Source: Thermoplasmata archaeon
GTDB taxonomy: Archaea; Thermoplasmatota; Thermoplasmata; Lutacidiplasmatales; UBA184
DNA: 64,000 nt
NCBI GenBank assembly: GCA_035504595.1
Contig: DATJRQ010000004.1
Span: 33,613 to 97,612 of the forward strand
Direction of reading: 5' to 3'
Below the pieces are notes generated by a model. It saw only the letters and a list, made by a program, of their open reading frames with translations. It searched no databases and was not told where the DNA came from. Positions 9,710-45,514 of this stretch are shown here, one piece after another. Position 1 is the first letter of the stretch, and every line of letters begins with the position of its first letter. The position numbers and the translations under genes are program-made.

Positions 9710-9818
9710 TGGGGCTGCCCGAATTTGAATCGGGGTCCCGGGCTCCCAAAGCCCGAAGGATGGACCAGTAGAGCGGACGGAGGGGCGTACCTCGCGCCCG
9801 TAGCTACCCCACAGCCCC
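9710..9818 (-). tRNA. tRNA-Pro (anticodon UGG) with a ~34-nt intron inside the D-loop
   Basis: Minus strand reads GGGGCTG TG GGGT [45 nt] TCCT T CGGGC TTTGGGA GCCCG GGAC CCCGA TTCAAAT TCGGG CAGCCCC A. It has a perfect 7-bp acceptor stem, a perfect anticodon stem and T arm, and discriminator A. Total length is 109 nt. Confidence 0.75.
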
Positions 9819-9828
9819 ACATCCGGCG

Positions 9829-10257
9829 CTAGACGGCCTCGACCCGTTTGAGCGTTCGGCCGATCCGGCATTCGGCGGGCTCGGCGTCGACCCGTTCGAT
9901 ACGGAAGCGTTGCTTCGACGGCATCGTTGGTCCCGCACAGACGGACCAGTTCGGGCAGTCGATCCGCTGGCACGGATACCGGCCCGTCTCGACGGAGCTC
10001 CCGACGACCGCGCTCCGTGAATCGACGACGATCGTGCGCGCCACCGGTTTTACTTCGACCACGTGGGCCTCCGACTCCTGGAGGGCACACGGGTGCGTCA
10101 CCGGACGAACCTTCGCGACCTCGTACTGCCGACCGATGTCGAGCGTCAGACAGGCGTGACGGTACGGGCACGTTCGGCAGACCGGCGCCCCACCCTGGTA
10201 GATGAAGCGGTAGCCGTCGCGAGCCTCGGGAGTGGCGATGAGGGTGATCTCGGCCAT
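9829..10257 (-). CDS. UPF0179 family protein
   Basis: 142 aa. The N-terminus MAEITLIATPEARDGYRFIYQGG and the conserved Cys pattern (CRTCPYRHAC...HPC...C..IDC) are typical of archaeal UPF0179. Confidence 0.8.
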   Translation of the reverse strand: MAEITLIATPEARDGYRFIYQGGAPVCRTCPYRHACLTLDIGRQYEVAKVRPVTHPCALQESEAHVVEVKPVARTIVVDSRSAVVGSSVETGRYPCQRIDCPNWSVCAGPTMPSKQRFRIERVDAEPAECRIGRTLKRVEAV

Positions 10258-20037: not shown

Positions 20038-20988
20038 TCAACTCTCCTCGACCACGACCCGCCGGACGTCGCTCACGCGGACGAGGAGGACGGGGCTCTG
20101 GCCGAGCTCCTCCTGCGTCAGGTCGACCGACCGCTCGCGCGCCAGGAACAGCGCGGCGAGGAAGATCGCGACCAGCCGGTCGCGGCCGGAGAGCGGGTTC
20201 CACAGGTCGAGGAGGGGGAACGCCTCGCCGATCGGGTGGCGGAGCGCCGCCTCCCACGTATCGGCGAGGTCGTGCTCGGGCAGGTCGCCGTGCACGAGCA
20301 CCTCGGGGGGAGCGCGTTGCTCCTCTCGGAGCCGCTCGCGCAGCTCCTGGACGTGCACGGCGCGGCGGGCGTCCGCTTCGGCCTCGCCGAAGGCGCGGAC
20401 GAGCTCGAGGAGCGATACCGGCCGGGTCTCGGGGTGACGGACCATCTCGAGGAGCGGAGGCGCGTCGGCGGAGCCAAGAACGGCGGACGTAACGTCGACC
20501 GCCTCGGGCGTCTCCATCAGCGGAAGGTACGAATCGTCGATCGGGCTCGCGACGGCGTCGTCCGGTCCCGGTGCCGGGGCGTCCCGGGCCTTGAGCACCG
20601 CCTCGGACTGCAGGTAGAGGATGCTCCATGCCATGTACACCAGGCGGCCGGCGATCGCGAAGTTGACGGCGCCGTCCTCCTGGACGCGCTCGAGGTAGGA
20701 CTGGGTGAACTTGACCAGGTCGATCTCCCACGGGTCGAACTCCTCTTCCATGACGAGCTCGAAGAGGAGCGCCATCGCCTTCTGGAACGGGTCGGGGATG
20801 ACGAGGTGAACCCCTTCCTTGAGGTTCTCGACAAGCGTCAGATACCGCTCGAGCAGCGCGGAGGTGTCCTCGGACTCGCCGAGCAGCGACCGGTGGAACA
20901 CGAGGTAGCGGAGCACCTTTTCGGCCGCCTCGCGCGGGACCGCGTTCGGGGCGGCGAGGTCGGTCGCCTCGGCCTCGGAGATCGTCAC
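20038..20988 (-). CDS. scpA: segregation and condensation protein A (kleisin)
   Basis: Contains FDPWEIDLVKFTQSYLERV...NFAIAGRLVYMAWSIL. GTG start overlapping the smc stop (GTGA). Confidence 0.8.
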   Translation of the reverse strand: MTISEAEATDLAAPNAVPREAAEKVLRYLVFHRSLLGESEDTSALLERYLTLVENLKEGVHLVIPDPFQKAMALLFELVMEEEFDPWEIDLVKFTQSYLERVQEDGAVNFAIAGRLVYMAWSILYLQSEAVLKARDAPAPGPDDAVASPIDDSYLPLMETPEAVDVTSAVLGSADAPPLLEMVRHPETRPVSLLELVRAFGEAEADARRAVHVQELRERLREEQRAPPEVLVHGDLPEHDLADTWEAALRHPIGEAFPLLDLWNPLSGRDRLVAIFLAALFLARERSVDLTQEELGQSPVLLVRVSDVRRVVVEES

Positions 20989-45232: not shown

Positions 45233-45338
45233 CGCCCTGGTCGGGAGTTCCGGGCGAAGGGGTCGGGCCCCTCCGCGCCTTCGAACCCGAGTCGCAGGCT
45301 CGACAGACCTACATCCTAGACCGCTAGACTACCAGGGC
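45233..45338 (-). tRNA. tRNA-Asp (anticodon GUC) with a ~33-nt intron inside the T-loop
   Basis: Minus strand reads GCCCTGG TA GTCT AGCGGTCTA GGAT G TAGGT CTGTCGA GCCTG CGAC TCGGG [40 nt] CCCGA CCAGGGC G. It has a perfect 7-bp acceptor stem, a perfect 5-bp T stem and discriminator G. Total length is 106 nt. Confidence 0.75.
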
Positions 45339-45514
45339 AACCCCGCGGGGCTAACCGTTCTCTGCTATGAACCTTGCCGGACCGGTTCGCGCGCCGGCGC
45401 GCCCGCGCCGGCACGCGCGCGTTCGACCGGTGCAGCGCGAACCCCTCGTGCGAGTGGAAGCCGCGATTTATCTAGAACCGGAGCAGACCAGAGGTCCGCG
45501 AATCGGGTGCGAAC

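Follow-up and report, generated by a model that had tools for sequence, protein, structure and literature searches.

Non-canonical tRNA introns are already well known from Archaea, and one of them lies in the D-loop of a euryarchaeal tRNA. In the archaeal bulge-helix-bulge (BHB) motif the exon helix h is followed by four nucleotides of the central helix H, a 3-nt bulge, the helix h', the opposing four nucleotides of H, a second 3-nt bulge and the other strand of h. That such bulges are cut after their second base also follows from the eukaryotic anticodon-intron pair. In the canonical intron, anticodon bases 34 and 35 are part of the 4-bp central helix and the cut after the second bulge base falls at 37/38 (PMC4090602).

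The closest single case to the locus described here is the pre-tRNA-Glu(UUC) of Methanopyrus kandleri, which contains an HBh' intron in the D-loop (PMC5829648). Both loci combine a short D-loop intron with a euryarchaeal tRNA and with splicing by proteins, which in our case is predicted. Moreover, in both of them one well-formed 3-nt bulge is located between the central helix and the intronic hairpin, and the other splice site is not canonically closed. In contrast to M. kandleri, the present intron interrupts tRNA-Pro instead of tRNA-Glu, is located at position 17/17a and belongs to a mesophilic order of acid-soil Thermoplasmata, in which it is fixed throughout with a constant geometry and two competing registers of the central helix. 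[quoted passage not shown]

A second group of related introns is found in Thermoproteales/Crenarchaeota and in ARMAN-2 (Ca. Micrarchaeum), where they are cut by EndA of the (alpha-beta)2 or epsilon2 type with broad specificity (PMC3239211, PMC4090602). These introns resemble ours in occupying sites outside 37/38, including the T-loop site 59/60 at which the tRNA-Asp of our window is interrupted, and in the presence of strict and relaxed motifs within one genome. Their endonucleases, however, possess the loop insertions L1/L2/L3, whereas the class expected for Thermoplasmata is alpha'2. Compared with the canonical hBHBh' intron at 37/38, the inferred EndA/RtcB enzymology, the cut after the second bulge base and the hairpin serving as h' are alike. 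The present intron differs by its position in the D-loop rather than the anticodon loop, by an imperfect central helix and by two extra bases, which depart from the 3-4-3 arrangement. Literature searches directed at non-canonical tRNA introns and at the order Lutacidiplasmatales brought up no description of non-canonical introns in Thermoplasmata, and the paper describing the order mentions neither tRNA introns nor the splicing endonuclease. The additional interest of the locus lies in its lineage, in the fixation throughout a whole order and in the relaxed motif.

An interrupted tRNA-Pro(UGG) gene

The window, i.e. the whole stretch of 64,000 nt that was analysed, belongs to a Lutacidiplasmatales/UBA184 Thermoplasmata archaeon and has a G+C content of 68.7%. 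Read from 9818 to 9710, a tRNA-Pro gene begins with the acceptor strand of GGGGCUG/CAGCCCC, U8, G9 and the D-stem strand GGGU. The anticodon arm CGGGC-UUUGGGA-GCCCG, a variable loop of 4 nt, the T arm CCCGA-UUCAAAU-UCGGG and a discriminator A complete the exons; CCA is not encoded. All parts of an elongator tRNA-Pro(UGG) cloverleaf are present, namely a 7-bp acceptor stem, a D arm, a 7-nt anticodon loop with UGG, a T arm with a loop of the UUCRANY type and the discriminator base. The D-stem strands GGGT and TCCT are, however, spaced by 45 nt, although a D-loop normally measures only about 11 nt. These elements, their coordinates and the wide D-stem spacing had been described in an initial annotation of the DNA, and all of them are seen on direct reading of the minus strand.

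In our view this gene probably encodes a functional tRNA-Pro(UGG) that is interrupted between positions 17 and 17a by a 34-nt, protein-spliced intron of archaeal type with a relaxed HBh' motif. A functional tRNA-Pro(UGG) with a non-canonical D-loop intron of about 34 nt in a euryarchaeal genome had been suggested initially, and the conservation throughout the order, the covariation of the intronic hairpin and the BHB-type geometry support this proposal. The features of the locus and of a second interrupted tRNA gene are collected in Table 1.

Table 1. Coordinates of the features in the window. Arrows mark predicted cleavage positions.
Feature	Position	Strand	Remarks
UPF0179 gene	9829..10257	-	stop codon 10 nt ahead of tRNA-Pro
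Interrupted tRNA-Pro(UGG) gene, whole	9710..9818	-	direct reading; G1 = 9818, discriminator A73 = 9710
Exon 1, GGGGCUGUGGGGUAGCU	9802..9818	-	tRNA positions 1-17, per favoured junction
Exon strand of central helix H, G12 U13 A14 G15	9804..9807	-	invariant in alignment
5' splice-site bulge C-U↓A, 3 nt	9801..9803	-	between central helix and hairpin; 3 unpaired nt in 108/112
Intron, 34 nt, ACGGGCGCGAGGUACGCCCCUCCGUCCGCUCUAC	9768..9801	-	boundaries predicted from the BHB cutting rule
Intron hairpin, helix h'	9774..9800	-	about 10 bp, one bulged base, closing pair C:G; RNAfold and covariation
Intron tail CUCUAC, 6 nt	9768..9773	-	conserved; complementary to G12-G15 in two registers
Exon 2, UGGUCCAUCC...CAGCCCCA	9710..9767	-	tRNA positions 17a-73, per favoured junction
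Alternative 3' site, register II	9760..9767	-	bulge U-G↓G 9767..9765; UCCAU 9764..9760 pairs with G7-G11 (9812..9808)
tRNA-Asp(GUC) with 33-nt intron at T-loop 59/60	45233..45338	-	strict hBHBh'
tRNA-Asp exon 1	45338..45280	-	
tRNA-Asp intron	45279..45247	-	
tRNA-Asp exon 2	45246..45233	-	

In the T arm (9720-9736) the pair 53:61 is A:U, and the variable loop is no longer than 4 nt, two features shared without exception by the 112 aligned sequences. In tRNAs this pair is nearly universally G:C.

Genomic context

The UPF0179 gene follows a gene for a protein resembling glycerol-1-phosphate dehydrogenase (EgsA-like), and the 3' end of tRNA-Pro is located 32 nt before the ATG of a family-2 glycosyltransferase gene. 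The order EgsA-like glycerol-1-phosphate dehydrogenase, UPF0179 and tRNA-Pro is kept in all relatives looked at. Identical copies were found on metagenome contigs from soil and peat, and the homologues of UPF0179 come, where a source is named, from a Thermoplasmata archaeon or from Candidatus Lutacidiplasmatales.

Between 9678 and 9828 the tRNA-Pro gene is squeezed between protein genes of the same strand, which leaves no noncoding room for a promoter of its own, and a T-rich terminator is absent. This tight packing, together with the missing promoter room and terminator, suggests that tRNA-Pro is co-transcribed with its neighbours and subsequently processed by RNase P/Z. A scan for sigma-70 promoters and intrinsic terminators around the gene, a type of scan that is unsuited to archaea, returned nothing. 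A heuristic search for a T arm plus acceptor over the 64-kb window revealed no tRNA beyond tRNA-Pro. The weak matches of the Rfam search (mir-433, sX9 and sR55) were dismissed as chance. The sR55 C/D-box sRNA match is located at 20758-20824 on the plus strand and is probably fortuitous, with 22 bits at a threshold of 35 and E=0.5.

Recognition by tRNA search programs

ARAGORN did not call tRNA-Pro on the unspliced genomic DNA, and Rfam (RF00005) gave no tRNA match for the gene, whether the gathering threshold or a cut-off of E<=1 was applied. After removal of about 32-39 nt from the D-loop, ARAGORN calls tRNA-Pro(tgg), and the 75-nt spliced product with the favoured junction results in a clean tRNA-Pro(tgg) cloverleaf. 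Since the failure of both programs is caused by the insert in the D-loop, it was not counted against the gene. The same failure would also be expected of a pseudogene, i.e. a disrupted, decaying or silent copy, or of a gene into which a small mobile element has inserted, with a working tRNA-Pro(UGG) located elsewhere in the genome. The conservation described in the next section renders this explanation extremely improbable.

With its intron search switched on, ARAGORN mistakes the interrupted tRNA-Pro(UGG) of relatives for a tRNA-Thr(ggt) containing an intron of 17-25 nt or invents introns of kilobase length. The miscalled tRNA-Pro loci include L018, L026, L037, L047, L066, L072 and L082. Automated annotation of these genomes may thus be wrong for tRNA-Pro(UGG). 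Because ARAGORN and Rfam miss or mislabel the genes, genomes of an order that is abundant in acid soil and peat can seem to lack tRNA-Pro(UGG) and tRNA-Asp.

Conservation of the interrupted gene

One genome per species (185,579 species) was scanned for the pattern TGGGGTAG, followed by a gap of 12-42 nt and TGGTCCATCCTTNGGG. This resulted in 112 stretches containing an interrupted tRNA-Pro with the insert at the identical site. Nearly all of them are titled Thermoplasmata, two being labelled 'bacterium' and 'Methanobacteriota archaeon'; UBA184 is among them, and so is Ca. Lutacidiplasma silvani AcS3-62. The latter is the type genome of the order Lutacidiplasmatales (PMC9287336). An alignment of the 112 distinct precursor sequences is near-invariant outside the insert, and positions 1-15 of exon 1 do not vary at all, although the invariance of the exon bases of the D arm is in part imposed by the search pattern.

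Loci reached by way of UPF0179 are independent of any DNA search pattern. At 74-88% identity of the UPF0179 homologues, seven loci with four further distinct sequences were obtained, all with an insert that agrees in length and site, and four more loci (72-74% identity) likewise carry the insert. Together with the window these represent 9 distinct sequences. With 112 stretches from species representatives and 9 independently reached loci, the occurrence of the interrupted tRNA-Pro gene is far beyond chance.

Among 241 million metagenome records, a search for the same exons with a D-loop gap of 1-4 nt returned zero intronless copies, and this collection does contain the host lineage. An intact, intronless tRNA-Pro(UGG) elsewhere would have contradicted the initial proposal; no intronless copy with these exons was found in the metagenome collection. 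In addition, the anticodon-stem pair 31:39 is exchanged from C:G to U:A by a double change in 5 of the 112 sequences. Near-invariant exons combined with such a double change mark a tRNA under selection.

A pseudogene is at odds with these data in several respects. The exons are near-invariant in more than 110 species and the insert shows compensating changes, which points to purifying selection on both. Furthermore, the insert occupies a single fixed site, and an intronless version with these exons was not found in the metagenome collection. A repeated or mobile element was rejected as well: the tail motif of the insert is not repeated beyond chance in the window (9 matches versus 6.9 +/- 2.5 expected). 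The intron predates the diversification of the order, and its geometry has remained fixed while its sequence turned over. It thus offers a clean natural data set from which the indispensable features of a relaxed splice signal can be read.

Structure of the insert

In the 112 sequences, GGGGUAG and UGG are separated by 32-38 nt. When the inserts alone were folded with RNAfold, 108 of 112 consisted of 3 unpaired nucleotides, a hairpin and 6 unpaired nucleotides. In the window, the hairpin h' has the sequence CGGGCG-c-GAGG ... CCUC-CGUCCG. In the alignment of 112 sequences, 9 of its 10 pairs are altered on both sides and 91% of the cells are paired. None of 500 shuffles reached the observed values, and slid registers are only 35-51% paired. 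A shorter hairpin, GGGCG/CGCCC, had been assigned initially; the covariation supports the longer one given in Table 1 in its place.

The three bases before the hairpin are all variable, namely the D-loop positions 16 (C88/A14/U10) and 17 (U108/C4) and the subsequent base (A84/U28). Variation at positions 16 and 17 is usual in tRNAs. The tail behind the hairpin has the consensus C-U-C-U-A-N, the last base being C81/U24/A5/G2 and all others conserved to at least 94%.

Since the structure rather than the sequence of the hairpin is conserved and the motif is not a strict BHB, one could also imagine that the insert is never removed and that the mature tRNA has an extra hairpin arm on its D-loop. 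This is highly improbable. The fixed flanks of 3 and 6 nt and a tail complementary to G12-G15 suit a splice signal but not an arm, and a helix at 17/17a would adjoin G18-G19 at the elbow formed by the D- and T-loops. We know of no precedent for a retained hairpin arm on the D-loop. A further argument is provided by the intron in tRNA-Asp, which is discussed below.

Splice motif and position of the junctions

The layout of 3 nt, hairpin and 6 nt corresponds to a BHB-type motif, to which the 5' side contributes a 3-nt bulge and the 3' side four nucleotides of H followed by two bases of the second bulge. In the model that we favour, the intron of the precursor would fold into the approximately 10-bp helix h', and G12-G15 would pair with the conserved tail to form the central helix H, so that C16-U17-A bulges out between H and h'. 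EndA would then cut at U17↓A and two bases past the opposing strand of H, the likeliest site being C↓U17a, and a ligase of the RtcB type would join the exons to a 75-nt tRNA with the D-loop AGCUUGGUCCA. The model predicts the exon junction ...GGGGUAGCU↓UGGUCCAUCC and an excised intron of 34 nt.

The tail can pair with G12-G15 in two registers, and both give the identical 5' cut, which is most likely U17↓A as judged from the layout of the motif. In register I, CUCU is located opposite G12-G15 and AC↓U represents the 3' bulge. It comprises the pairs G15:C, A14:U and G12:U together with a U13·C mismatch in every sequence, and 73% of the cells are paired. The exon helix G7-G11/U39-U43 is five bases away from H, not three, and the 3' bulge is not directly closed. 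In register II (GUAG/CUAN) the tail is shifted by two bases and 97% of the cells are paired. Here, a textbook 3-nt bulge U-G-G links the central helix to the 5-bp exon helix. Two bases of the tail remain opposite the 5' bulge, which results in a 3x2 internal loop at the 5' site.

If register II determined the 3' site, the same intron would be cut between G18 and G19. This would yield the junction ...UAGCU↓GUCCAUCC, an excised intron of 36 nt and a 9-nt D-loop AGCUGUCCA without G18. The better pairing is in line with this possibility, as is the minimum free energy fold of the window precursor, in which G12-G15 pair with CUAC. Register II is also energetically favoured in 105 of 108 sequences, with a mean advantage of 6.6 kcal/mol, and it accounts for the invariant A34, which pairs with U13. 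In addition, hBH has been treated as a valid splice site on its own (PMC4090602). Nevertheless, we regard a cut in this register as unlikely because G18 would be deleted. The product would lack one partner of the near-universal G18-G19 pair, even though its T-loop UUCAAAU is canonical. With U and G assigned to the intron, it would be fortuitous that the insert is followed by UGGUCCA, the standard 3' part of the archaeal D-loop. Furthermore, C30, which is invariant, and U31, which is conserved to 94%, would be left without a partner and without an explanation, and seven sequences have A or G where pairing with G12 is needed.

We favour the 3' cut C↓UGG over UG↓G, which rests on four features of the sequences. 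The predicted cut would restore the standard D-loop AGCUUGGUCCA beside a canonical T-loop. The insert is followed by exactly the usual UGGUCCA, and register I accounts for both C30 and U31. Finally, the composition of the 3' bulge, A-N↓U, matches that of the strict intron in tRNA-Asp of the same lineage. In the initial annotation the boundaries had been placed at C16↓U and A↓C; these would be cuts after the first bulge base and fit no register of the central helix. According to the BHB rule the predicted intron is ACGGG...CUCUAC, one base further 3' than placed there.

A BHB-like motif can be formed at the junctions, as was demanded initially, but in relaxed form only. A strict BHB scan of the precursor gave no 3-4-3 motif that yields a sensible tRNA. 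The strict hBHBh' definition comprises two 3-nt bulges separated by exactly 4 bp and outer helices of at least two Watson-Crick pairs. The precursor departs from it, since the spacing between hairpin and exon helix amounts to 9 nt instead of the 7 nt of a strict 3-4-3 motif, i.e. two bases too many. The relaxed HBh'/hBH class is defined by one or more 3-nt bulges between the central helix and an outer helix and by a second cut placed two bases past the opposing strand of H. The geometry of this class is found: in 108 of 112 sequences a C-U-A bulge separates G15:C from the C:G pair that closes the hairpin, and the 6-nt tail is constant. Relaxed introns are also characterized by an excision that restores a functional tRNA, and the predicted D-loop and clean cloverleaf are those of such a product. 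In either register the motif is a relaxed bulge-helix-bulge of the HBh'/hBH classes known from Crenarchaeota, from ARMAN-2 and from the D-loop intron in tRNA-Glu of M. kandleri (PMC3239211, PMC4090602, PMC5829648).

No single register explains the conservation of the tail, in which every position but the last is conserved to at least 94%. The precursor may switch between conformations, or the enzyme may read the tail sequence directly.

Splicing endonuclease

According to reviews, euryarchaea whose endonuclease is of the alpha4 or alpha'2 type possess canonical introns with strict BHB motifs only. A relaxed D-loop intron in Thermoplasmata would be an exception, meaning that either the range of EndA has been broadened or alpha'2 enzymes are more tolerant than assumed. 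Thermoplasmata belong to the euryarchaeal 'Cluster II', for which only alpha'2 EndA has been reported; strict motifs are described as a requirement of alpha4 and homodimeric EndA, and the loop insertions L1-L3 are reported to accompany a broad specificity (PMC5829648, PMC3239211).

A phmmer search with M. jannaschii EndA found no homologue among the ORFs of the window, and a hidden Markov model of five solved EndA catalytic domains detected none among all ORFs in 1.65 Mb of related loci. A profile search of a large protein database likewise gave no EndA of the lineage, only enzymes of the alpha4/alpha type from other, mostly low-G+C lineages (Methanococci, Sulfolobales, Hadarchaea-type and low-G+C proteins). 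As a tentative and rather doubtful proposal, Lutacidiplasmatales may have independently evolved an EndA of broadened range by a new loop insertion or subunit arrangement. If true, tRNA genes and EndA would have co-evolved independently once more, within a group thought to possess strict alpha'2 enzymes only.

The intron of tRNA-Asp(GUC)

An intron in a tRNA-Asp 35 kb away had been noted initially; it is present and located in the T-loop (Table 1), so that both tRNA genes in the 64-kb window carry non-canonical introns. The ARAGORN call for tRNA-Asp (45265-45339) was rejected, as its false 3' end lies inside the intron. The intron occurs in at least 120 metagenome contigs. In its motif the T stem serves as h, and UUCG pairs with CG(G/A)A; of 106 sequences, 104 form all four pairs. 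The two bulges read A-A↓N and A-C↓U, the latter with A in 105 and C in 98 of 106 sequences, and h' is again a covarying hairpin.

This textbook BHB intron indicates that the splicing machinery of the lineage is active on non-canonical sites, and it thereby also speaks against an insert that is retained in mature tRNA-Pro. A common origin of the two introns, as previously considered, does not emerge from their comparison: the local alignment score is 14 versus 12.2 +/- 2.4 for shuffled sequences, and 25% of 2000 shuffles reach it. The shared strings of the GGCGCG..AGG type on which this idea was based are located in G+C-rich stems that vary freely within each family.

In the metagenome contigs L131, L168 and L242, a tRNA-Asp whose T arm is identical bears A+T-rich inserts at the same T-loop site 59/60. 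The occurrence of the Asp intron may thus not be confined to the high-G+C lineage of Lutacidiplasmatales.
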